DNA of 31,479 bases, from IMG/VR virus record IMGVR_UViG_2547132280_000007. One strand, written 5' to 3'. Of this stretch, positions 19,230-31,479 are shown in pieces. The DNA is from a virus (lineage: Duplodnaviria > Heunggongvirae > Uroviricota > Caudoviricetes). The position numbers and the translations under genes are program-made. Every line of letters starts with the position of its first letter. Within the stretch, counting starts at the first letter, position 1. Below the pieces are notes generated by a model. The model saw only the letters and a list, made by a program, of their open reading frames with translations. It did no database searches and had not been told where the DNA came from.

Positions 19230-21002
19230 ATGACCATCACCACAGACACCACTCTTTTACACGACCCGCGTCGTCAGGCGGCGCTGCTGTACTGGCAGGG
19301 ATTTTCCGTGCCGCAGATTGCCGCCATGTTGCAGATGAAACGCCCGACGGTGCAGAGCTGGAAACAGCGCGACGGCTGGGACAGCGTTGCCCCCATCAGC
19401 CGTGTCGAAATGAGTCTGGAAGCGCGGCTGACCCAGCTCATCATCAAACCGCAGAAAACCGGCGGTGACTTCAAGGAAATTGACCTGCTCGGACGCCAGA
19501 TTGAACGACTGGCACGGATAAACCGCTACAGTCAGACCGGCAACGAGGCAGACCTTAATCCGAACGTCGCTAACCGCAACAAAGGCGGGCGTCGCAAACC
19601 GAAAAAGAATTTTTTCAGTGACGAGGCCATCGAAAAGCTGGAGCAGATTTTCTTTGAGCAGTCTTTCGACTATCAGTTGCACTGGTATCGCGCCGGGCTT
19701 GAGCACCGCATCCGCGATATCCTGAAATCCCGCCAGATTGGCGCAACGTTTTATTTTTCCCGCGAGGCGCTGCTGCGTGCCCTGAAAACCGGTCATAACC
19801 AGATTTTTCTGTCGGCCAGTAAAACGCAGGCGTATGTGTTCCGCGAATACATCATCGCCTTTGCCCGTCTGGTTGACGTTGACCTGACCGGTGACCCGAT
19901 TGTCCTGGGCAATAACGGCGCAAAACTGATTTTTCTCGGCACCAACTCCAACACCGCACAGAGCCATAACGGTGACCTGTACGTCGACGAGATTTTCTGG
20001 ATCCCGAATTTTCAGGTACTGCGTAAGGTGGCATCAGGTATGGCCTCACAGAGTCACCTGCGCTCGACCTATTTCTCCACCCCGTCCACGCTGGCGCACG
20101 ACGCCTACCCGTTCTGGTCGGGTGAACTGTTTAACCGGGGACGCGCCAGCGCCGCTGAACGCGTGGAAATCGACGTCAGTCATAACGCCCTTGCCGGTGG
20201 GCTTCTCTGTGCGGACGGCCAGTGGCGGCAGATTGTCACCATTGAGGACGCCCTGAAAGGCGGCTGCACATTGTTCGACATTGAGCAGCTTAAACGCGAA
20301 AACAGCGCCGACGATTTTAAAAACCTGTTCATGTGTGAATTTGTTGACGACAAGGCATCGGTGTTCCCGTTCGAGGAGCTGCAACGCTGCATGGTCGACA
20401 CGCTGGAAGAATGGGAAGACTATGCGCCGTTTGCCGCAAATCCGTTCGGCTCACGTCCGGTATGGATTGGTTACGACCCGTCACACCGTGGCGACAGCGC
20501 CGGATGCGTGGTACTGGCACCGCCGGTGGTGGCCGGTGGCAAATTCAGAATACTTGAGCGTCACCAGTGGAAAGGCATGGACTTTGCCACCCAGGCGGAA
20601 TCCATCCGCAAACTCACCGAAAAATACAACGTCGAATACATCGGAATTGATGCCACCGGCCTCGGTGTCGGCGTGTTCCAGCTCGTGCGCTCGTTCTATC
20701 CCGCCGCGCGCGATATCCGCTACACGCCGGAAATGAAAACCGCAATGGTGCTCAAGGCAAAAGACGTTATCCGCCGTGGCTGTCTGGAATATGACGTCAG
20801 CGCCACCGACATCACCAGCTCGTTTATGGCTATCCGCAAGACCATGACCAGCAGCGGACGCAGTGCCACCTATGAGGCCAGCCGCAGCGAGGAAGCCAGC
20901 CACGCCGACCTCGCCTGGGCGACCATGCACGCCCTGTTAAATGAGCCACTCACCGCCGGTATCAGCACCCCGCTGACATCCACCATTCTGGAGTTTTACT
21001 GA
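19230..21002 (+). CDS. P: terminase large (ATPase) subunit gpP, 590 aa
   Basis: Start at MTITTDTTLL... (ATG 19230, GAGGT 4 nt upstream) gives 590 aa, the P2 gpP length. Confidence 0.9.
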   Translation: MTITTDTTLLHDPRRQAALLYWQGFSVPQIAAMLQMKRPTVQSWKQRDGWDSVAPISRVEMSLEARLTQLIIKPQKTGGDFKEIDLLGRQIERLARINRYSQTGNEADLNPNVANRNKGGRRKPKKNFFSDEAIEKLEQIFFEQSFDYQLHWYRAGLEHRIRDILKSRQIGATFYFSREALLRALKTGHNQIFLSASKTQAYVFREYIIAFARLVDVDLTGDPIVLGNNGAKLIFLGTNSNTAQSHNGDLYVDEIFWIPNFQVLRKVASGMASQSHLRSTYFSTPSTLAHDAYPFWSGELFNRGRASAAERVEIDVSHNALAGGLLCADGQWRQIVTIEDALKGGCTLFDIEQLKRENSADDFKNLFMCEFVDDKASVFPFEELQRCMVDTLEEWEDYAPFAANPFGSRPVWIGYDPSHRGDSAGCVVLAPPVVAGGKFRILERHQWKGMDFATQAESIRKLTEKYNVEYIGIDATGLGVGVFQLVRSFYPAARDIRYTPEMKTAMVLKAKDVIRRGCLEYDVSATDITSSFMAIRKTMTSSGRSATYEASRSEEASHADLAWATMHALLNEPLTAGISTPLTSTILEFY

Positions 21003-22036
21003 TGAGCAAGAAAAAAGGGAAAACACCGCAACCTGCGGCAAAAAAAATGACCGCCAGCGCCCCGAAAATGGAGGCATTCACCTTTGGTGAGCCGGTGCCG
21101 GTACTCGACCGGCGTGACATTCTGGATTACGTCGAGTGCATCAGTAACGGCAGATGGTATGAGCCACCGGTCAGCTTTACCGGTCTGGCGAAAAGCCTGC
21201 GTGCTGCCGTGCATCACAGCTCACCGATTTACGTCAAACGTAATATTCTGGCCTCGACATTTATCCCGCATCCATGGCTTTCCCAGCAGGATTTCAGCCG
21301 CTTTGTGCTGGATTTTCTGGTATTTGGTAATGCATTTCTGGAAAAGCGTTACAGCACCACCGGTAAAGTTATCAGGCTGGAAACCTCACCGGCAAAATAT
21401 ACCCGCCGTGGTGTGGAAGAGGATGTTTACTGGTGGGTGCCGTCCTTCAACGAGCCGACAGCCTTCGCGCCCGGCTCCGTGTTTCACCTGCTGGAGCCGG
21501 ATATTAATCAGGAGCTGTACGGCCTGCCGGAATATCTCAGCGCCCTTAACTCTGCCTGGCTGAATGAGTCGGCCACGCTGTTCCGCCGCAAGTATTACGA
21601 AAATGGCGCACATGCCGGATACATCATGTACGTCACTGATGCCGTGCAGGATCGCAACGATATCGAAATGCTTCGCGAAAACATGGTCAAGTCGAAAGGC
21701 CGCAACAACTTTAAAAATCTGTTTCTCTATGCCCCGCAGGGGAAAGCCGACGGCATTAAAATTATCCCGCTCAGTGAAGTGGCAACGAAGGACGATTTTT
21801 TTAATATCAAAAAAGCCAGCGCCGCTGACCTGCTGGACGCGCACCGCATCCCCTTTCAGTTGATGGGCGGCAAGCCGGAGAACGTCGGGTCGCTGGGTGA
21901 TATTGAGAAAGTGGCAAAGGTCTTTGTCCGCAATGAACTTATCCCGTTACAGGACAGGATTCGGGAAATAAACGGCTGGCTCGGCCAGGAGGTCATCCGC
22001 TTTAAAAACTACTCACTGGACACTGACAACGGCTGA
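21002..22036 (+). CDS. Q: portal protein gpQ, 344 aa
   Basis: 344 aa; start overlaps the P stop (TGATG). Confidence 0.9.
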   Translation: MSKKKGKTPQPAAKKMTASAPKMEAFTFGEPVPVLDRRDILDYVECISNGRWYEPPVSFTGLAKSLRAAVHHSSPIYVKRNILASTFIPHPWLSQQDFSRFVLDFLVFGNAFLEKRYSTTGKVIRLETSPAKYTRRGVEEDVYWWVPSFNEPTAFAPGSVFHLLEPDINQELYGLPEYLSALNSAWLNESATLFRRKYYENGAHAGYIMYVTDAVQDRNDIEMLRENMVKSKGRNNFKNLFLYAPQGKADGIKIIPLSEVATKDDFFNIKKASAADLLDAHRIPFQLMGGKPENVGSLGDIEKVAKVFVRNELIPLQDRIREINGWLGQEVIRFKNYSLDTDNG

Positions 22037-22205: not shown

Positions 22206-22224
22206 GTGCTTTCCCCGCCTCGCC
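22206..22224. other. cos: cos cohesive-end site (19 nt)
   Basis: gtgctttccccgcctcgcc is the reverse complement of GGCGAGGCGGGGAAAGCAC, which I recall as the P2 19-nt cohesive end. It lies about 170 bp past the Q stop, the expected position. Confidence 0.6.
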
Positions 22225-22299
22225 CGCCCGCTTCATGGGGCGGTTTTAATGCAGTTGCATGAGTACGTTGGAACCGCACTGGTGCTGACGATACCCAAT

Positions 22300-22320
22300 C
22301 AAACCTTGCTGTATAATTAC
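22300..22320 (+). promoter_or_regulatory. candidate sigma70 promoter for the cargo operon
   Basis: TG immediately followed by a perfect TATAAT (22310-22317), about 130 nt upstream of the cargo gene start; the -35 element is weak. Confidence 0.3.
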
Positions 22321-22450
22321 TTGCGAATTCACGCACATCAACGCGAATCTTACATCATGAATAATTCATTTATGGCTACAGAATGAGTATATTGCATGTT
22401 ATGAAATAACTTTGTGCTCCTTCTCGTGGACATGTTCAACGGAGATCCAG

Positions 22451-23572
22451 ATGATTGCTGATTCAGAAATACTTTATGTTCCGCTAGATGATTTGGAACT
22501 TGACACAGAAAACCCAAGACTTCCTGAAGGCGTGTCTCGTGACCAATTGGGAATGATTAACTACATAGCAACCTCAACATCTATCGAAGACTTAATGAGT
22601 GCTATTGCGGAAAATGGTTTTTTCCCTGGAGAACCATTGATTGTCATTCCTGATAGTGGAGCGCCGGGGAAGTACATTGTAGTTGAAGGAAACCGTCGCC
22701 TATCCGCGGTCAAATTATTACGCGATCCGACACTATGTGAAAATCCAAGTGCTCGACTACGAGAAATTGCATCAAATGCAAAACATACGGTCGATCGTGT
22801 TCCTGTCATTGAGCGCCAAACAAGAGAAGAGATTCTTCCGTACCTTGGTTTCAGACATATTACTGGTGTCAAACAATGGGAACCCTTATCAAAAGCTCGA
22901 TATATTAAACAGCTTTTTGATTATACCAATGCAAATCTGGATCCAATGCTACGCTACTATGAGGTTGCCAGAGCTATTGGCAGTCGTAGGGATCATATCA
23001 AGCGTAACCTAGACGCTTTAGCGGTGTATGAAATCATTAAAAAAAATGATTTTTATGGTATTGAAAAGCTAGATGAAGAAACGATTAAATTTTCAGTATT
23101 ATCAACAGCACTTGCTGATGAGCGGTTAGGCCAGTTTGTCGGAGTTTCAATCGAAGACGATGGAGACACAATACCAAGTCATCCTATCATCAATTCTAAG
23201 AGTTTAAAGAACAAAGAAATAAAAGAACTAACTGAATGGTTATATAAAAAAGGCGAGGATAAAAAAACTCGTGTAGGAGAATCACGTAATTTAAGAGAAC
23301 TAGCTGCTGTTGTAAGTAGCCCTAAGGCATTGGAGCAATTCCGAATGGGGGCTCCACTCGCAGTTGCCTATCAATTGACATCTGATATTACTAAGGACTT
23401 TCTCCAGTTACTTTATCAAGTTGAAGCAGCTTTGATAGATGCAGCAGGCATGGTTGCCACGGTAGAGTATGATAGACAGGCCCATGAAGTAGCACGAAGA
23501 ATCAATAAACATATTAAGCTTATAGGTTCTGAAATAGCAGAGAAAAATAGCAGAGGTGATGATGACTTTTGA
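22451..23572 (+). CDS. ParB/Srx-like N-terminal domain protein, 373 aa (cargo gene 1)
   Basis: Start at ATG 22451 with GGAG 6-7 nt upstream. The N-terminal 150 aa follow the ParB N-domain pattern: LDDLELDTENPR, IVVEGNRRLSAVKLL (GxRR box), VPVIER. AT-rich. Confidence 0.7.
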   Translation: MIADSEILYVPLDDLELDTENPRLPEGVSRDQLGMINYIATSTSIEDLMSAIAENGFFPGEPLIVIPDSGAPGKYIVVEGNRRLSAVKLLRDPTLCENPSARLREIASNAKHTVDRVPVIERQTREEILPYLGFRHITGVKQWEPLSKARYIKQLFDYTNANLDPMLRYYEVARAIGSRRDHIKRNLDALAVYEIIKKNDFYGIEKLDEETIKFSVLSTALADERLGQFVGVSIEDDGDTIPSHPIINSKSLKNKEIKELTEWLYKKGEDKKTRVGESRNLRELAAVVSSPKALEQFRMGAPLAVAYQLTSDITKDFLQLLYQVEAALIDAAGMVATVEYDRQAHEVARRINKHIKLIGSEIAEKNSRGDDDF

Positions 23573-24551
23573 AGTAGGAGTTATGCATCCCAACTCTCCT
23601 CATTTGTTTGCAGATTTAGCCGAGTTACTCACGGTAATTAATTATACCGGACGTAACTCACTACATAAAAATGATTTAGATTCAGTAAGAAAATTCGGCA
23701 TAACAAGCGTTGAAGAAATTGATGAAGAATGTAATTCTGAAGAAGAAATTAATGGAGACGCTGAGAGAAATGATCGTTTTGAAGAGCAACTCGAAGATGT
23801 TTGGACACAACTCGAATATAGAGAAAGTGCTCTTGGAAAAATATATCCATTTATAATTTCAGGTGATGAGATAATTATTAAAGAAAATCTAAACCAACAA
23901 CAACGAATATATGTTTTTCTTCTTTGCTGCTCTAGACTTAGATCCTTTAAGTCGATTAAAGGAGCAGCACAACGTTGGGCAAAGAGCTTTGCCAGAGTAT
24001 GTAAAGTAGCAATGATTTCTCTCTTACCTGCACATGGCACCGTAAGAATTTTTGATGCTAACTCCGATGATAGGCAAAATTATTATGGAACAAATCTTCG
24101 GACAGCTCTACAAACTTTAGGAAAAGATCTTGGAGTTTGTAGTTTAAACACAAGGGAAATAAATAGAGCTCCCACATCTGGTGATGCCGGGTTTGACCTA
24201 ATTGCTACAGTGGAATTTCCTGATGGTCAAACTAGCAACTATGGAATTCTTGGTCAATGTGGTGCACAAGAAACAGGGTGGCCAAGCAAAACATTAGAGG
24301 CTAACGTGTTAAAACTGACCACCTATTTCCAAATTGCGTTCCAGCATCCATCAACAATGTTCACGCCTGTTTTCTATCGGGAAGCAAATGGCGAATGGGT
24401 AAGCACACACGCAACCGCTGGGGTATTATTATTAGATAGGTTGAGAATCATATATCTACTTGATAAGGCAAACCAATGGGAAGCGATAACTACCTCTGAT
24501 TGGTTTCGCGAATTTGAGGAAGAGCTTTATACATTAAATCCAGAGCCTTAA
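23562..24551 (+). CDS. hypothetical protein, about 329 aa, translationally coupled to gene 1 (cargo gene 2); possible nuclease or effector
   Basis: Overlaps the gene 1 stop by 11 nt. Start is uncertain (GTG 23556, ATG 23559/23562 or ATG 23583); AGAGG lies 5 nt before ATG 23562. No confident motif seen. Confidence 0.6.
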   Translation: MTFEVGVMHPNSPHLFADLAELLTVINYTGRNSLHKNDLDSVRKFGITSVEEIDEECNSEEEINGDAERNDRFEEQLEDVWTQLEYRESALGKIYPFIISGDEIIIKENLNQQQRIYVFLLCCSRLRSFKSIKGAAQRWAKSFARVCKVAMISLLPAHGTVRIFDANSDDRQNYYGTNLRTALQTLGKDLGVCSLNTREINRAPTSGDAGFDLIATVEFPDGQTSNYGILGQCGAQETGWPSKTLEANVLKLTTYFQIAFQHPSTMFTPVFYREANGEWVSTHATAGVLLLDRLRIIYLLDKANQWEAITTSDWFREFEEELYTLNPEP

Positions 24552-24558
24552 TAGCTTA

Positions 24559-25503
24559 TCAATCCCATAATTCTATTGGCAATGCCTTCGTTACAGCTTC
24601 AAAAAGCGGCGGAGGCACTGCATTACCAACCACCGTGTATTTCATGCCAAGACTTGCAGCATTTGTTTCTGGAAACACTAGATCCTCAAACCCTTGTAAT
24701 AGTGCTGCCTCTCGAAAACTGAATCTGCGAGCTCTCCGATCCTCAACAAATCTCCATTCATCAGTTCTTACTTTCTCCATCGGAGGACTGACAGGATGCA
24801 ACGGCATATGCCTTGCATTAGCAACTATTGTCTTTGAAATTTGATCCCAATCCTGGCGACGATTGCGAGACATATAATACCAATGGAATCCCATATCATA
24901 AAATTCACCTTCTGGCCATTCAGGTAAATGCCCTATAGCATCTTTAATAGTAACATAGTTGACGCCAGTTGCTGGCCCATGAGTTGGCTGAGGGAACTCG
25001 TACTTAACTTTGAAATCATTACGGATTCCTACGATAAATATTCTTTTTCTTTCCTGCGCTACTCCATATTCAGCCGCATTTAAAACTTTTGCGGAAACAG
25101 TATAACCTGCTTCAGTAAAAACCCTGATCTGGTCAGATAACAAATGCTCAAAATTTTTTCTAACCATACCAGACACGTTTTCTACTATAAAAGCTTTAGG
25201 CTTTATATTGTTTAAAGCTCTAGCAAACTCTAAATAAAGAGTATTAATTTTTCGATCGGCTTTACGCGCACCACCCTGGCTGAATCCCTGACATGGATAA
25301 CAACCTACCAGCAAATCAGATTTAGGAAAAGTAGTTACATCAGCAATATTGCCTAATATGTAATCAGTTTCTGGATGATTGGCAATATAAACATCGCGCG
25401 CATACGGCAAGATATCGTTGGCCATAAGCACATCAAAGCCGGCTCTCAAAACCCCCGCATCGGAACCACCGCATCCAGAAAAAAGTGAAACTACTGTTGG
25501 CAT
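24559..25503 (-). CDS. DNA (cytosine-5)-methyltransferase, 314 aa
   Basis: C5-MTase motifs in canonical order: I SLFSGCGG, IV GCYPCQGFS (catalytic Pro-Cys), VI FIVENV, VIII QERKRIFIVG, X VVGNAVPP. Strong SD (GGAGGGGATA) before the ATG. Confidence 0.85.
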   Translation of the reverse strand: MPTVVSLFSGCGGSDAGVLRAGFDVLMANDILPYARDVYIANHPETDYILGNIADVTTFPKSDLLVGCYPCQGFSQGGARKADRKINTLYLEFARALNNIKPKAFIVENVSGMVRKNFEHLLSDQIRVFTEAGYTVSAKVLNAAEYGVAQERKRIFIVGIRNDFKVKYEFPQPTHGPATGVNYVTIKDAIGHLPEWPEGEFYDMGFHWYYMSRNRRQDWDQISKTIVANARHMPLHPVSPPMEKVRTDEWRFVEDRRARRFSFREAALLQGFEDLVFPETNAASLGMKYTVVGNAVPPPLFEAVTKALPIELWD

Positions 25504-25704
25504 TATCCCCTCCTAAAACCGACCGCGTATTATAGCGAAAGCCTCCGTATATAGAAGCAGGTTTTGAACAAGATTATGTTCTCACTTTTTAACAACTGTG
25601 GCCATAAAAAATTAGCTCAATATGAAAAACAGATTAATTCATTGTTTTTCATAGAAAAATTCCACAAACACTATAACATTCCCACAACACTGCAGTAGTA
25701 GTCA

Positions 25705-27981
25705 TTATTGTTTAATTGAAAAAACCGACCACTCATTAGCGACCGGATACGTGAATTTTTTCCCGTCATAATTTACGGTTGCCCCACGCGCCAGCGCCTC
25801 AAGCTCCCATCGCTGCGGCCTGATACCGTTCTGAGCAAGGTCAACGCGGATACGGGTAATTTGCATTCGTTCCGACCGGGTCAGTCTGGCCGATGGTGCC
25901 ATTTCATGCGGTTTTAACGGGCTTCCGTTTCTTTGCTGGCGATTTGGTGTTCTCAGGCCATGTTTTAATGCACCTCTGAGCGCCCTCACGACCTCCGGGT
26001 CATTCCATTCGATGACACCGTCATCAACCAGATTAAGCACTGCTGCGGCGTGCTCAGAAGGTGTGGGGGCTGGTAACGAAGTATCACCACCGGTGAGCTT
26101 TCCACAGTTATTGACAGGACTCCGAGGCGCGGCGATGCCGCTTTTTAAAGTCAAAGGCTCAACGACCGGAACTTTCGGCACAATGCGCCAGTCCGTCGTT
26201 CTGGTGATATGAATATGACGCGCGCCGAGATGCGGCGCGTAAATGCCGACCACTCTCTCGACTTCTTCCTCGTACTCGTTAACGTCATCCGACGGGCTAC
26301 GGGCAACCCTGACAGTCTGACAATCGCGCGGGACATTTGCCCCACCCTGCGCGCTGATATACAACGCAAAATCACCACTGTCTGCGGCAGCGCGAGCAGC
26401 CTCGACGCGTTCGTCAAACTCATCAGCAATACTGACGCCGCGAGGCAATTTGCGTAGTTCACGGTAAGCCCCCATTGTCGGCAGTCCAACCGTTTTAAAT
26501 TGCGGGATGCGCCACGTTGACGCCCATGCGGTAACAGCCGCGGCAGTATCTTTAAGCGGCTTACCGGTATCGTTATCGAGCTGACCATCCAGTGCATAGC
26601 CGTCGATATTTTTTGAAATGTATTTCGCGATATATCCCGCAGCACCGCCCCGGTTAAGGTGCTTTGCCTGAAAACGGTTTCGCGCGGCTCCTCTTTCGTC
26701 ACCATCCTCTTTGAGCGCATAGCGACGCATGATTTCGATAATCTGGTTACGCTGGCGTGGATTACAAAAAAGCATCATATGCCAGTGCGGCGTTCCGTCG
26801 TGGTGTGGCTCGACGACACGCAAACCGTAGACCTGTAAATCATTATCCTTAAATGCCGTGCGCATCAGGCTCCAGATGCGGCAGAGATAACGCTGCGCAT
26901 CCTTTGGATTAAATGCCTCATCGTTCCAGCCGTGATTAAGCTGAACGGTTTTACTTTCGCCTTTTCTGACCTGACGAGTCGGGTGATACTTTGACGGCGC
27001 GGTCAGCGTGATAAACATCCCCACATCACCCTCTGCGGCGGCGTAACGCTCAATACCGGCAATGGTGTTCATCAGCTCCATCCGGCGAATTTCAGGATTA
27101 GAAATACTGCCCATCACCTTACTGATAAGGTCGATGCGCTCGCCGGTTTCCCTGTTTTCAAGGTCACACGATTTAAGAAATTCCAGATTTGCCTGGCGGC
27201 GCGCACGCACATCACGAATGGCGTGTTTACTGGCATAAGGAGAACGGTCTTTATTGACCTCCCCGACAGCTATCAGTAACGCTTCATGCCAGCGCATACG
27301 CTGGCCTTTAAGCTGATGAGTCCACCACTCATCGTTAAACAGACGGGCAATGGCAGAATATGCCTGCCTCGTGGTCATCTGCCCTTTACGGTATTTTTTC
27401 CAGTAGAGCGGGGATATATTGAAAGCACGTGCAGCGCCAGCAACATGACCATAGAGGTGAGCCTGCGCCTCATCCGTAAACAGCGATTCTTTTTCGCCAT
27501 GCGCATCCACCCAGGCATCGCTGAGTTCCTCATACATCATGAAAAGCTGCGATGAGATACGGGCAACAAACTTTTTCAGCTCCTTGTCATTCATTCCCGG
27601 CAGGCGCGCATAGTGGTCACGCTCTGCCAGAAACAGTAACGACGCGTCGGTGTTCATTTCATGGCGCTGATTCACACGCTCAATGCGCGGCCATAAACGA
27701 CGCTGAAAAGTGGATGTGAGGAAATAAAACCCGTGCACCGGGCTTTTATTGCGCCGGATGTAGTCATAGCGTGAAGTAAACAGCGAGCGCAAAAAGTAAG
27801 GCAGGCGGTTAATCGTGGATAAAACACCCTGCACCTGACGCATCTCGTCACGTGTAAGGGGTCTTTCGCGCCCGACAGCCTCGCGTGGCGCGTTCCATGC
27901 ATAAGCACCGGTAAACGCCTTACCGGTGCCTGCGGCAAATACTGACGGAGGGACAAAACGCCCGGAGGCTTTAACGGCCAT
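25705..27981 (-). CDS. A: replication initiation protein gpA (rolling-circle nickase)
   Basis: Large protein directly after B and the small ORFs. Start chosen at MAVKASGRFVPP... (ATG 27981, coupled to the upstream ORF stop); the track ORF extends to 28023. Confidence 0.85.
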   Translation of the reverse strand: MAVKASGRFVPPSVFAAGTGKAFTGAYAWNAPREAVGRERPLTRDEMRQVQGVLSTINRLPYFLRSLFTSRYDYIRRNKSPVHGFYFLTSTFQRRLWPRIERVNQRHEMNTDASLLFLAERDHYARLPGMNDKELKKFVARISSQLFMMYEELSDAWVDAHGEKESLFTDEAQAHLYGHVAGAARAFNISPLYWKKYRKGQMTTRQAYSAIARLFNDEWWTHQLKGQRMRWHEALLIAVGEVNKDRSPYASKHAIRDVRARRQANLEFLKSCDLENRETGERIDLISKVMGSISNPEIRRMELMNTIAGIERYAAAEGDVGMFITLTAPSKYHPTRQVRKGESKTVQLNHGWNDEAFNPKDAQRYLCRIWSLMRTAFKDNDLQVYGLRVVEPHHDGTPHWHMMLFCNPRQRNQIIEIMRRYALKEDGDERGAARNRFQAKHLNRGGAAGYIAKYISKNIDGYALDGQLDNDTGKPLKDTAAAVTAWASTWRIPQFKTVGLPTMGAYRELRKLPRGVSIADEFDERVEAARAAADSGDFALYISAQGGANVPRDCQTVRVARSPSDDVNEYEEEVERVVGIYAPHLGARHIHITRTTDWRIVPKVPVVEPLTLKSGIAAPRSPVNNCGKLTGGDTSLPAPTPSEHAAAVLNLVDDGVIEWNDPEVVRALRGALKHGLRTPNRQQRNGSPLKPHEMAPSARLTRSERMQITRIRVDLAQNGIRPQRWELEALARGATVNYDGKKFTYPVANEWSVFSIKQ

Positions 27982-28246
27982 ATGAGCCAAAAGCCTCTGA
28001 ACAACGCTTGCTGAGTTGCTCAACCTGCGCGTTTAAATCAGCAAAAGATTTTGCGCTTCCGGTCAGAATATCGTGATGCATCAGGCCGGAAACGAGCTGG
28101 CTTAATTTCGGGTAATAACCAACCACTGCCAGCCATTCCTGACCGGCGTTTTTACCGCTTTCCGCTCTCTTTCTCTCGTGGAGAATAAACTGAAAGCTGT
28201 CACTGGTAACGACATAACGTTCGCCAATTTCAATACGAATACTCAT
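27971..28246 (-). CDS. small early protein, 91 aa (P2 orf83-position)
   Basis: Synteny between B and A; overlapping stop/start with neighbours. Confidence 0.6.
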   Translation of the reverse strand: MSIRIEIGERYVVTSDSFQFILHERKRAESGKNAGQEWLAVVGYYPKLSQLVSGLMHHDILTGSAKSFADLNAQVEQLSKRCSEAFGSYGR

Positions 28247-28467
28247 GCCATTCTCCGGTAATGTTTGTTTTTTGCTTCAAAGACTGACTGACAGGAAACA
28301 CAACGCGTGGCTGACGGATAAGCCGCACGACGGGCAGCAGGTATTGGCGCGTCACACTCTTCGCAAACCAGCGCAGAAGCACCGCAATGTTTTACCCTTG
28401 CCGCGTTAATCTGGCGCTCCAGTAATTCAGCCTGTTGTTCCTGAATAAAATCTACGTTGTCCGGCAT
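28243..28467 (-). CDS. TraR/DksA-like C4 zinc-finger protein, 74 aa (P2 orf82-position)
   Basis: Two CxxC pairs: CEEC and CVSC separated by about 17 aa. Confidence 0.65.
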   Translation of the reverse strand: MPDNVDFIQEQQAELLERQINAARVKHCGASALVCEECDAPIPAARRAAYPSATRCVSCQSVFEAKNKHYRRMA

Positions 28468-28469
28468 TA

Positions 28470-28772
28470 TCAGCTCCTTTTATCGTTAAGTTTCCTGGAT
28501 ACATCAGCGCAATAAATGACAAGTTCTGTCGTTAATTTTGTCAGTTCATCCACGGAGGAAATTTGCTTGTGAAATACAGCGCGTTTCACAAGTAAATTGA
28601 CCACATCAGACAGGAGGTTTAATTCGTTCTGATAAATCGCGATAACAGATTCAGTTATTTCGTGTTTTTCTTTATCAAGCCTAAGTTGAATAAGAGACAA
28701 ATCGCCATTTTTCATAACGGAGATTTTTAAGGCATTGTTCAGTAATACAACTGAACGAGAACAGGACATCAA
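28470..28772 (-). CDS. small early protein, 100 aa (P2 orf81-position)
   Basis: Synteny; overlapping stop/start with neighbours. Confidence 0.55.
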
Positions 28773-28993
28773 AGCACCTCCCCGCGAGACAATCCGATAT
28801 TGTGAAATTTTTCCGACTCCTGACTGAGCAGCTCGACTATCTCCACGCGGGATAACTCCGCCTTTGTGATGTGGCGAATCATGGCGTCAAGATGAGAAGA
28901 AAAGCGCGTCGCTGCATCGGCCTGTGCTTCGGTTCTGGCCTGTTGCAGCAGTAATGCGTATTTACCGCACTGATTTTCAGAAACTGTATGCAT
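28769..28993 (-). CDS. small early protein, 74 aa (P2 orf80-position)
   Basis: Synteny immediately downstream of B. Confidence 0.55.
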
Positions 28994-29056
28994 GACTTTC
29001 TCCAGGCAAAAAGAAGCCCCGCACGATTAAGTGCGTTAAAAACTCTGGTTAATTAT

Positions 29057-29557
29057 TTAATGCAGATATTGCTCTGGTTTAACCGACGTCAGAATTGTCG
29101 GTGCATACTCAAACAGGCTGAATAATTCACGTAATGCACGGAATAAGGCATCACGCCAGTAACATGATTCTTCATTAATTCGCCAGTATGGCTGGTTGAA
29201 TTCTTTTTCAGTCAATCCGGCATGCATAAATAAAGTACGGCGCTGACTGACTGTTAAAAAACTAATATATGCATACTCACTTGCACCGACCTGACGGCGT
29301 TTTGAGAATGCCCCACGCAGTTCATCAATTGCACAAACCAGCCGTTCACGTTCGACGTCGTTCATTTCTTCAAAACGCATCGTTGCGTGACGTTGTTTTA
29401 ACTGCGCATGGAAGCAAACCGTTAACCGTTCGCGCTCCATCATCTGATTATAATAATCACATGTATCCTGCCAGCGAGGGACGGCAAGATGCTTACCAAT
29501 TATCCGGCGCATAGCTGCTGGCTGTTTTTCAACGAGATTAAGCGTCATCACTGTCAT
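29057..29557 (-). CDS. B: replication protein gpB (helicase-loader-like), 166 aa
   Basis: Start at the third codon (MTVMTLNL...) gives the P2 gpB length; the track ORF extends to 29563. Confidence 0.8.
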   Translation of the reverse strand: MTVMTLNLVEKQPAAMRRIIGKHLAVPRWQDTCDYYNQMMERERLTVCFHAQLKQRHATMRFEEMNDVERERLVCAIDELRGAFSKRRQVGASEYAYISFLTVSQRRTLFMHAGLTEKEFNQPYWRINEESCYWRDALFRALRELFSLFEYAPTILTSVKPEQYLH

Positions 29558-29724
29558 TTCCATACCCTCCGGCTTTTCAGAAAGGTCAGAGCCTTCTTTA
29601 ACGGACTCTGTTTTTTGGTGCGGATAATGATTCCCTTGCGCCCCTTCCCGTGGGTGATGGTGAAGTCAATCGCCCTGGGGCTTTCGTTACGCAGTAACTG
29701 AGCAATACAACGCGGCTCATTCAT
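29554..29724 (-). CDS. small ORF between cox and B (P2 orf78-position)
   Basis: Start MNEPRC... at ATG 29724 (GGATGGGG upstream); its stop overlaps the B start. Small and basic; weak evidence. Confidence 0.4.
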   Translation of the reverse strand: MNEPRCIAQLLRNESPRAIDFTITHGKGRKGIIIRTKKQSPLKKALTFLKSRRVWK

Positions 29725-29726
29725 AA

Positions 29727-30014
29727 TCACAACCCCATCCACAAGAGCCATGCATCACGCTGTTCAACCGGTCGGTTATAAAACGCCTCACGTACAGCGC
29801 GATTAAACTCAGGAATGAAAACCCATTTTTCACCGGCACGAGCCTTCGGTTTGCAAGGATCACGCAATTCAATAATTGGTAATTTATTTGCTTTCACCAT
29901 TTCACTGACGGCTGTCTTTGGCTTCCCTAATAAATCAGCAAATTTATCCACATGAACCGCATCAAGCGGATACTGAATCACATAATTTTCAGCGTCCATA
30001 TATGGTACCCTCAT
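29727..30014 (-). CDS. cox: Cox-like excisionase / early-promoter repressor, 95 aa
   Basis: First gene of the leftward early operon, divergent from C. ...RDPCKPKARAGEKWVFIPEFN...WLLWMGL parallels the P2 Cox pattern as recalled, but is clearly diverged. Confidence 0.7.
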   Translation of the reverse strand: MRVPYMDAENYVIQYPLDAVHVDKFADLLGKPKTAVSEMVKANKLPIIELRDPCKPKARAGEKWVFIPEFNRAVREAFYNRPVEQRDAWLLWMGL

Positions 30015-30076
30015 AGGATCCAGCCCTTTCTAAACCACTCAAAACCGTTTAGACGCTGGTTTATTCTCAAATCAAT

Positions 30077-30094
30077 GGAACCTATATAGGTTCC
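30077..30094. promoter_or_regulatory. 18-bp perfect palindrome GGAACCTATATAGGTTCC; candidate operator
   Basis: Read directly from the sequence. Confidence 0.55.
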
Positions 30095-30114
30095 AGTTTT
30101 GAGGGAATTTAGTC

Positions 30115-30124
30115 CCTATATAGG
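30115..30124. promoter_or_regulatory. second CCTATATAGG copy, 34 bp downstream of the first; candidate operator
   Basis: Direct repeat of the 10-bp palindromic core, ending 11 bp before the C start. Confidence 0.5.
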
Positions 30125-30135
30125 CACCATGTCAA

Positions 30136-30429
30136 ATGAAATTAAGCGAAAAGATTAAGGCCTTGCGTGAGGCTGAAGGGCTAAGCCAATCAAAATTCTG
30201 TGAAATCATAGAGTTACCGCTAAGCACACTTAAAAAATATGAAGGAGGAAACTTTGAACCCGGTGGCACAGCTTTGCTAAAAATCACTATGCATCCCACA
30301 TTCCAAAAATATGCTCTATGGCTTATGACAGATAAAACCGCGCCGGACGCAGGACAAATCGCACCGGCTCTCGCGCACATTGGGCCAGAGTCAACAGAGT
30401 CCAACCACTCCGCGAAAAGGATTGGCTAA
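30136..30429 (+). CDS. C: immunity repressor C, 97 aa
   Basis: The C-terminal ...YALWLMTDKTAPDAGQIAPALAHIG... resembles the P2 C repressor as recalled; divergently oriented to cox. Confidence 0.75.
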   Translation: MKLSEKIKALREAEGLSQSKFCEIIELPLSTLKKYEGGNFEPGGTALLKITMHPTFQKYALWLMTDKTAPDAGQIAPALAHIGPESTESNHSAKRIG

Positions 30430-30498
30430 CTCTATATAAAGATTACATTTTCACCATTTGCTACCAAGATGGTGAATACAGCGCCGGAGGGCTTTCTT

Positions 30499-31479
30499 AT
30501 GGCAATTAAGAAGCTCGATGATGGTCGCTATGAAGTGGACATTAGACCTCGCGGTCGCGACGGAAAACGCATCCGCAGGAAATTCGAAAGAAAAGCTGAA
30601 GCACTAGCATTTGAGCGATACACAATCGCCAATGCCAGTCAGAAAGAATGGGGAGGCCAGCGAGCAGACCGCCGAACTTTGAGTGAGTTGCTGGACATCT
30701 GGTGGAAATATCACGGGCAAAACCACGAGCATGGAACAAAAGAGTTTAATCATCTACTCAAAACCATCAGCGGCATAGGTGATATACCAGTGAGCCGGAT
30801 GAGCAAAAGGGCTTTGATGGATTATCGTTCCATGCGACTACGTGATGGTATCAGTGCCGCAACGATAAACCGTGACATGTACCGATTATCCGGCATGTTC
30901 ACAAAATTAATTCAATTGGATGAATTTTCCGGGCAACACCCAATTCACGGACTGCCGCCACTGGCGGAGGCCAACCCTGAAATGACGTTCCTGGAAAAAG
31001 CAGAAATCGCAAAACTGTTAAATGTTTTGGCTGGTGATGACTTACTTGTCGCGCTTTTATGTCTGAGCACTGGAGGAAGATGGACGGAAGTTGCCACGCT
31101 AAAACCAGCACAGATTACAAATTGCAGGGTTACCTTCCTGAAAACCAAAAACGGTAAAAAGCGAACCGTGCCGATTTCTGAGGAACTGGAGAAAAAAGTT
31201 AAAGAGGAGGCCAGCGCCAAATTATTCAAAGTTGATTATGAGAAATTTTGCGGGATTTTACGCAGAGTGAAACCTGATATACCACCCAATCAGGCAACCC
31301 ACATCCTGCGGCATACATTCGCAAGCCATTTCATGATGAATGGGGGCAATATAATCGCACTGCAACAGATTCTGGGACATGCGAGCATTCAGCAGACGAT
31401 GGCCTATGCGCACCTTGCGCCTGACTACCTGCAAAATGCCGTCGCTCTGAATCCACTAAAAGGCGGAGTGACGTTATAA
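30499..31479 (+). CDS. int: tyrosine integrase, 326 aa
   Basis: Start MAIKKLDDGRYEVDIRP... (GGAGGG 7 nt upstream); C-terminal catalytic motifs HILRHTFASHF and GHASIQQTMAYAHL (Tyr). The stop is the last codon of the window. Confidence 0.9.
   Translation: MAIKKLDDGRYEVDIRPRGRDGKRIRRKFERKAEALAFERYTIANASQKEWGGQRADRRTLSELLDIWWKYHGQNHEHGTKEFNHLLKTISGIGDIPVSRMSKRALMDYRSMRLRDGISAATINRDMYRLSGMFTKLIQLDEFSGQHPIHGLPPLAEANPEMTFLEKAEIAKLLNVLAGDDLLVALLCLSTGGRWTEVATLKPAQITNCRVTFLKTKNGKKRTVPISEELEKKVKEEASAKLFKVDYEKFCGILRRVKPDIPPNQATHILRHTFASHFMMNGGNIIALQQILGHASIQQTMAYAHLAPDYLQNAVALNPLKGGVTL

Follow-up and report, generated by a model that had tools for sequence, protein, structure and literature searches.

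A C5 cytosine methyltransferase in the defense hotspot of a P2-like prophage is linked to ParB-like and nuclease-like genes in a candidate restriction-modification-like cassette

Which role falls to the C5 cytosine DNA methyltransferase (MTase) gene of the prophage in IMG/VR record IMGVR_UViG_2547132280_000007: is it the modification half of a restriction-modification (R-M)-like unit formed with the two genes that converge on it, or an orphan enzyme that protects phage DNA? Both alternatives had been proposed in an initial annotation made from the sequence alone. The whole stretch of DNA analyzed here (the window, 31,479 nucleotides) is a complete P2-like (Peduovirus) prophage, in which the portal gene Q, gene A, and an integrase-side open reading frame (ORF) at the right end are recognizable. 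Its MTase was found in the company of a ParB-like gene (gene 1) and a nuclease-like gene (gene 2) across viruses and E. coli genomes, and it very probably functions together with them. With moderate confidence, we read the trio as an R-M-like module in which 5-methylcytosine (5mC) protects self DNA from the gene 1-gene 2 pair; its methylation dependence and its anti-phage function are what we infer. The three genes are as follows (aa, amino acids):

22451..23572, plus strand: gene 1, 373 aa, true start at ATG 22451; ParB/Srx-fold N-terminal domain, helix-turn-helix (HTH), and C-terminal helices.
23562..24551, plus strand: gene 2, 329 aa, putative nuclease effector; weak PD-(D/E)xK restriction-endonuclease-like fold.
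24559..25503, minus strand: C5 cytosine DNA methyltransferase, 314 aa, M.HaeIII-like, ATG start; assigned from Pfam, TIGR00675, PDB, and motifs.

That ORF 24559..25503 encodes a C5 methylase is, in our judgment, virtually certain. Residues 3-308 of the protein aligned with positions 2-322 of the 324-position Pfam profile PF00145 (DNA_methylase) at E = 5.5e-65, with a score of 220.4 bits against a cut-off of 22, and the NCBIfam model TIGR00675 (dcm) gave 192.5 bits against a curated cut-off of 100.65. All six diagnostic motifs were found in the canonical order: FSGCG at F8 (motif I), PCQ at P70-C71-Q72 with Cys71 as the catalytic residue (motif IV), ENV at 108 (motif VI), QERKR at 150 (motif VIII), RRFSFRE at 259 (motif IX), and GNA at 293 (motif X). 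These results bear out the initial annotation of a C5 MTase with all canonical motifs. The variable region from motif VIII to motif IX, which holds the target-recognition domain (TRD), comprises 104 aa. With its catalytic motifs intact, the protein looks like an active enzyme, an activity that is predicted from sequence. The MTase itself is ordinary and already annotated: it is a member of a very well known family, and identical proteins are labeled 'DNA cytosine methyltransferase' in RefSeq (WP_001143636.1). The top PADLOC match of the MTase was DruM2 (1.1e-113), and Druantia type II was rejected as an identity for the locus because no other Druantia component is present in the window. The neighbors of the MTase are gene 2 and gpA, not DruF, DruG, or DruE, and the largest ORF in the window encodes 815 aa, whereas DruE measures about 1,800 aa or more. 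The DruM2 match thus reflects general C5-MTase similarity only.

The linkage of the MTase to genes 1 and 2 was assessed in two collections, 5426 complete Escherichia coli genomes and the viral contigs of IMG/VR. The window-type cassette was present in 48 of the 5426 E. coli genomes, all three genes being present in 48 of 48. In IMG/VR, a C5 methylase adjoined gene 2 at 27 of 27 loci (26 convergent, 1 upstream), and gene 1 lay upstream at all 26 loci with enough flanking sequence. Look-ups that started from the MTase gave a consistent result: five of five homologs (73-90% identical) lay beside ParB-like and gene-2-like genes, downstream of gene A and converging on genes for proteins of 357-373 aa (ParB-like) and 308-341 aa. 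The hosts of these five were Klebsiella, Enterobacter, and E. coli P2/186-like prophages, and some of the homologs occurred in hundreds of assemblies. The same trio also adjoins integrases in a lambdoid prophage of Burkholderia, an island of Pseudomonas, and an element of Methylophilaceae. At two Methylophilaceae loci (L003:7165-7929 and L004:3165-4097), an extra HNH_2 (PF13391) endonuclease gene lies between gene 2 and the methylase.

Beyond the window type, a variant of the type carried by phage Wphi was found complete in 104 additional E. coli genomes, and another 36 genomes, O145:H28 strains included, combined a Wphi-like methylase (93% nucleotide identity) with a window-like gene 1/gene 2 pair in the same hotspot. 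In E. coli O145:H28 RM12581 (L097), which carries this shuffled type, the gene 1 and gene 2 proteins measure 372 and 330 aa. The cassette family was therefore present in 188 of the 5426 genomes (48 + 104 + 36, about 3.5%), and no MTase-only remnant was seen among these 188 carriers. Across 38 distinct trios, the pairwise identities of gene 1 and gene 2 were correlated at r = 0.97, which indicates that the two genes form one co-evolving unit, and MTase identity was correlated with that of gene 1 or gene 2 at r of about 0.55-0.60. Mean identity was 74% for the MTase vs. 55% and 48% for genes 1 and 2, respectively; the TRD core of the MTase was nearly invariant, and MTase modules were common to diverged gene 1/2 variants. 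These comparisons suggest that partner pairs which diverge rapidly are served by one methylation specificity. The cassette was naturally disrupted in three cases, all with an intact methylase: an IS5-like ISKpn26 element in a gene-2-type ORF (L096, strain 98206), a split gene-2-type ORF (L098, M25631H), and a 1-nt indel that splits gene 1 (L059, NCTC8623), sequencing error being possible for indels.

What kind of proteins the two partners are was addressed by profile searches and structural models. Gene 1 had no Pfam match above threshold. Its AlphaFold model (30 homologs; pLDDT 88) showed a ParB/Srx fold, an HTH, and a C-terminal helical hairpin, and an invariant box, E79-G80-N81-R82-R83, fits the GxxR/GxRR nucleotide-binding box of the ParB/Srx superfamily. 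The protein matched 25 PADLOC PD-Lambda-5_A models (best E = 6.6e-29, profile positions 7-277 of 440) as well as the PADLOC candidate model PDC-M38A; a HEPN domain was sought in gene 1 and was not found. Gene 1 overlaps gene 2 by 11 nt, and from this overlap the two genes are predicted to be translationally coupled.

Gene 2 was modeled with a pLDDT of 85.7 and a pTM of 0.88. A Foldseek search with this model returned MspJI as the only supported match, and a weak one (E = 0.017), while searches of Pfam, NCBIfam, and PADLOC and a sequence profile search of PDB returned nothing for gene 2; in PHROGs, it falls in a family of unknown function. The family motif SGDxGxD ... QC ... (W)xxK ... DRxR, with conserved acidic residues and a Lys, is kept down to 24% identity, and a profile search yielded 1,222 cluster representatives. 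Among the 150 matches listed, the relatives were mostly stand-alone proteins of about 310-350 aa, with some shorter fragments. The modeled structure weakly suggests that gene 2 encodes a PD-(D/E)xK-fold nuclease.

The target site of the MTase was approached by comparison with M.HaeIII, a GGCC-specific type II enzyme (PDB 1dct/3ubt). The two proteins aligned end to end (residues 4-308, E = 1.4e-48), with the same motif order, I-IV-VI-VIII-TRD-IX-X, and sizes of 330 aa for M.HaeIII vs. 314 aa for the window MTase. Common to both is the TRD segment MSRNR...W...T..A..R...LHP. Residues R225, R227, and R243 of HaeIII, reportedly DNA-contact residues according to the 1995 M.HaeIII structure paper, have equivalents in the window MTase. 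The two enzymes differ in that overall identity is 37.5%, falling to about 30% in the variable region, and in that a 10-residue HaeIII insertion is absent from the window MTase; with this insertion missing from an otherwise end-to-end match, the earlier description of a compact enzyme with a short target-recognition region is a fair one. They also differ in partner, which is a single-chain endonuclease for M.HaeIII and a ParB-like protein plus a separate nuclease-like protein here. Judged by this alignment, the MTase target is probably GGCC or a close relative.

GGCC sites were only mildly rarer than expected (125 observed vs. 170 expected), and the backbone (1-22250 plus 25705-31479) contains 118 of them. 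Site avoidance was discarded as a clue to the target, since other palindromes (GATC, GGNCC, and several 6-mers) are far more depleted, with or without the cassette. In the backbone, GATC occurred 12 times vs. about 101-110 expected and GGNCC 9 times vs. about 116 expected; CGGCCG, GGCGCC, GGGCCC, and CGATCG were absent, and CCGCGG and TGGCCA occurred once each. The 3.45-kb cassette shows no such depletion: it contains 13 of the 25 GATC sites of the window.

The initial annotation had also noted that the MTase directly follows gene A on the same strand, which holds true at a distance of 201 nt, and had suggested read-through from the early operon. Three features bear on this suggestion:

25534-25529, minus strand: perfect TATAAT hexamer, 26 nt 5' of the MTase start; a consensus match only.
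25514-25509, minus strand: AGGAGG Shine-Dalgarno sequence of the MTase; a consensus match only.
25725..25746, minus strand: terminator-like hairpin with a T-run, found by pattern scan; it precedes the MTase and falls within the final 40 nt of gene A.

Given these signals and the hairpin, autonomous expression of the MTase from its own putative promoter is at least as likely as read-through from gene A. At its other end, the MTase stop lies 7 nt from the stop of gene 2 (24551) in a convergent arrangement, and in some relatives the two stops overlap by 4 nt. Convergent stops that nearly abut imply overlapping antisense transcription. In other convergent R-M units, such antisense overlap sets the methylase-to-nuclease ratio, and by analogy it could do so here.

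Where the cassette sits in the prophage was resolved by the following landmarks:

21002..22036, plus strand: portal gene Q, one flank of the hotspot (Pfam Phage_portal, E = 3.3e-14; RefSeq 'phage portal protein').
22206..22224, no strand assigned: P2-type cos cohesive-end sequence, an exact match to the reverse complement of GGCGAGGCGGGGAAAGCAC.
22262..25704, no strand assigned: low-GC accessory insert of 3.4 kb that contains the cassette and separates cos from gene A.
25705..28023, minus strand: P2 gene A, the replication endonuclease and the other flank of the hotspot (Pfam Phage_GPA, E = 8e-122).

We take GGCGAGGCGGGGAAAGCAC to be the P2-type cos sequence. In Yersinia phage HQ103, a carrier of this cassette at 99.9% identity, the linear genome ends at query position 226, corresponding to window position 22225, at cos. 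In other P2-like phages, the match to the query ends at about 22260 and resumes at the end of gene A. The GC content of the insert is 0.37-0.42 (about 40%) vs. about 0.55 in the backbone. Positions 1-1000 of the window likewise have a GC content (0.416) below that of the neighboring prophage genes. The interval between gene A, cos, and the portal gene is a documented P2 defense hotspot (Vassallo 2022, PMC9519451, citing Rousset 2022), with old and tin as its cargo in P2 itself and many validated systems elsewhere (PMC9519451). The best explanation of these observations is that the three-gene cassette was acquired horizontally and is seated in the cos-proximal defense hotspot of P2. Nothing in the cassette overturns what is expected of this hotspot.

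Among characterized systems, PD-lambda-5 is the closest validated relative. It is a two-gene anti-phage system recovered by functional selection from E. coli ECOR7 and listed as 'ParB/HEPN, methyltransferase'; its authors called it a compacted prophage 'RM+Abi' system, its cloning needed an mrr-deleted host, and it defends against 9 of the 10 phages tested (PMC9519451). The likeness to the cassette lies in the pairing of a ParB-like protein with a DNA methyltransferase and, within the A protein of PD-lambda-5, in the ParB-N domain and the HTH-bearing region that follows it, gene 1 corresponding to approximately the N-terminal two thirds of A. The differences are equally clear. A measures about 430-500 aa and has a C-terminal HEPN/DUF4145-like region, whereas gene 1 encodes 373 aa without a HEPN match; B is a D12-class (Dam-like) N6-adenine methylase (MethyltransfD12, 99.9% probability), whereas the window methylase is a C5 enzyme; and the cassette has a separate gene with a putative PD-(D/E)xK fold, gene 2, which has no PADLOC match. 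Filing the cassette as a PD-lambda-5 member was therefore rejected, as two defining features, the HEPN region and the D12 methylase, are absent here. The cassette is instead an uncharacterized, widespread variant of the methylase-plus-ParB-like defense theme of PD-lambda-5, and by analogy it most plausibly works in a related way. The initial annotation had mentioned neither the hotspot beside cos nor the ParB-like character of gene 1 and the relationship to PD-lambda-5.

Other known elements resemble the cassette in part. Phage Wphi carries gp98-gp96-Mth (AY135739) in this hotspot, where the three genes follow the order and convergent arrangement seen in the window. The identity between Mth and the window MTase is 76%, and their TRDs are nearly identical, whereas the Wphi partners have diverged to 33% (ParB-like) and 25-27% (nuclease-like) identity with the window genes. 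Mth is annotated only as 'DNA cytosine methylase', and versions in Klebsiella and Enterobacter P2/186-like prophages are abundant. GmrSD, BrxU, and SspE are phage defense enzymes that likewise join a DNA nuclease to a nucleotide-binding module of ParB fold (PMC12373910). They are single-chain type IV enzymes with a ParB-fold DUF262 NTPase, a DGQQR motif, and an HNH/DUF1524 nuclease, which target modified DNA and have no cognate methylase; the cassette has an EGNRR box and a linked methylase, and its putative PD-(D/E)xK nuclease is a protein of its own. R-M cassettes of P2/P4-like elements, finally, place a phage-borne methylase and a nuclease at the cos/portal-proximal accessory locus, as with EcoRII-C/Vsr/M.EcoRII in Burkholderia phage KL3 (PMC3091744) and EcoO109I on P4-like satellites (PMC9122126). 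Those cassettes contain a recognizable single restriction endonuclease family, often with Vsr, whereas two proteins of unknown family and no Vsr are found here.

Read as an R-M-like module, the cassette could operate in the following way. Across host and prophage DNA, the methylase would convert a short site to its 5mC form; this site is probably GGCC or one closely related to it. The ParB-like gene 1 protein would engage DNA that lacks the mark, possibly via a nucleotide-dependent switch as in CTP-binding ParB-fold proteins, and would then recruit or license the gene 2 nuclease to cut, so that incoming unmethylated phage DNA would be attacked and self DNA spared. Relative to PD-lambda-5, a separate DNase would take the place of the fused HEPN effector, and a C5 methylase that of the Dam-like methylase. 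Two carrier strains are relevant to whether the mark is active. The 'safe' laboratory strains E. coli W (NC_017635.1) and ATCC 8739/Crooks (NZ_CP043852.1) each have a family cassette in a P2-like prophage, of the Wphi type in W and of the window type (97.4% identical) in ATCC 8739, and both strains are described as restriction-minus, without hsdMRS, mcrBC, or mrr (Archer 2011, PMC3032704). As mcrBC and mrr would attack Gm5C-containing DNA, their absence lends weak backing to an active mark in W and Crooks. A putative 5mC-restriction locus has been described elsewhere in W (PMC3032704). The literature on Tn-seq essentiality of the methylase and on the methylome motif of carrier strains yielded nothing specific; a Pectobacteriaceae Tn-seq paper and a paper on M.BatI proved to be about other methylases.

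Several results weigh against such a module, and the main one concerns pairs that have no adjacent methylase. A genome scan with one genome per species recovered 43 loci, about 34 of them with enough flanking sequence. The 43 loci span Proteobacteria, Chloroflexota, Acidobacteria, Bacteroidota, Actinobacteria, and Campylobacterota, and in all of them gene 2 follows gene 1. A C5 methylase was adjacent at about 26 of the 34 species-representative loci, and at least 8 of the approximately 34 consist of a gene 1-gene 2 pair with intact motifs and no MTase within about 5 kb:

L015, L019, L022, L026-L028, L045, and L056: MTase-less loci with intact gene 1-gene 2 motifs.

The pair of L056 lies between GmrSD and Mrr_cat genes, that of L015 adjoins genes for a type I HsdS and an AAA ATPase, gene 2 of L019 is followed directly by an IS605/607 element, and the pairs of L026-L028 lie among housekeeping genes in Methylococcales. 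Crenothrix sp. D3 is among the genomes with MTase-less pairs. Strict type II R-M predicts solitary methylases and never solitary nucleases; the reverse was seen here. The classical type II rule that the endonuclease never occurs without its methylase is thus broken by these pairs, and where classical type II R-M has a single endonuclease protein, the 'R' side here consists of two co-evolving proteins, one of them ParB-like. Either an unlinked methylase covers the MTase-less pairs, or a lack of methylation does not by itself make the pair lethal. Furthermore, the most distant gene 1/2 loci adjoin C5 methylases that are only 29-47% identical and, to judge by this divergence, probably of another specificity; such unrelated C5 methylases, together with the N6-methyladenine (m6A) mark of PD-lambda-5, indicate that the nuclease pair is not tied to one mark. 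PD-lambda-5 is moreover strongest against T-even phages, whose DNA resists ordinary R-M (PMC9519451), a hint that more than simple restriction is at work. The GGCC assignment draws on a single solved enzyme, at 30-37% identity, and on its reported contact residues, the nuclease-side bias of the disruptions is not significant (n = 3, p of about 0.33), and within the library searched, no experiment on the cassette and no paper characterizing the trio was found.

The MTase-less pairs also speak for a composite, non-restriction system, which we rate as unlikely, though deserving of serious consideration. Under this explanation, the ParB-like/nuclease pair would be triggered by something other than missing methylation, possibly as abortive infection, with a phage protein, modified phage DNA (as for GmrSD-type ParB-nuclease enzymes), or replication intermediates as the trigger. 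The methylase would be a separate accessory, serving for example to guard the phage against other restriction systems, to block a competitor, or to form a second 'RM' layer as proposed for PD-lambda-5. That one intact-motif pair lies between GmrSD and Mrr type IV genes fits this proposal, as do the moderate correlation of the MTase with genes 1 and 2 beside the 0.97 between the latter, the swapping of MTase modules, and the T-even preference and 'RM+Abi' designation of PD-lambda-5. The best fold match of gene 2, MspJI, is a modification-dependent enzyme; such a nuclease beside an active 5mC methylase, however, would be self-destructive. Nor was the methylase ever missing in phages (27 of 27 loci) or in cassette-bearing E. 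coli (48 of 48), the convergent layout with its closely spaced or overlapping stops is fixed, and no trigger candidate is evident.

The two remaining explanations fare worse. If the MTase were an orphan phage methylase, it alone would shield P2-like DNA from GGCC-type restriction or regulate genes, and the convergent genes would be cargo. Phage-borne orphan C5 methylases are common (PMC8936443), this MTase has promoter-like and ribosome-binding signals of its own and a position after the early gene A, and the 118 GGCC sites of the backbone would gain from protection. Every close homolog examined was nevertheless flanked by ParB-like and gene-2-like genes, the 188 E. coli carriers include no MTase-only remnant, and the three genes travel together among unrelated mobile elements; we therefore consider this explanation very unlikely, and the orphan alternative of the initial annotation is not supported. 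An addiction module, which would stabilize the prophage by post-segregational killing of cells that lose it, with defense incidental or absent, also appears highly improbable. A nuclease and a protective methylase in convergent overlapping units are typical of selfish type II R-M, and disruptions were seen only in nuclease-side genes, both of which count for addiction. Hotspot cargo, on the other hand, has repeatedly been shown to be anti-phage (PMC9519451), and PD-lambda-5 is itself a broadly acting defense system; addiction and defense are not mutually exclusive. Of the two roles first proposed for the MTase, that of the modification half of an R-M-like unit is thus the one sustained by linkage (27 of 27 viral loci, 48 of 48 E. 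coli genomes, and five of five look-ups) and by the putative nuclease fold of gene 2; its mechanism is a proposal, and about 8 of 34 pairs lack an adjacent MTase.

It is possible, and proposed here only tentatively, that the ParB-like protein acts as a DNA clamp, switched by nucleotides, which senses methylation state and licenses a PD-(D/E)xK nuclease, and that the cassette, PD-lambda-5, and about 1,200 clusters of related sequences make up a distinct and widespread R-M-like immunity class, with a constant sensor and interchangeable effector (HEPN or DNase) and methylase (m6A or m5C). Among P2/186-like prophages of Klebsiella and Enterobacter, the cassette family is very common, and its partner proteins are of 'unknown function' in Pfam, PHROGs, and PADLOC. 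If the cassette does work as an R-M-like module, it would explain the self/non-self discrimination of PD-lambda-5-type systems and would add a ParB-fold-dependent branch to restriction-modification. It would also mean a barrier and a 5mC mark to reckon with when carrier strains are transformed or when phages are used on them.

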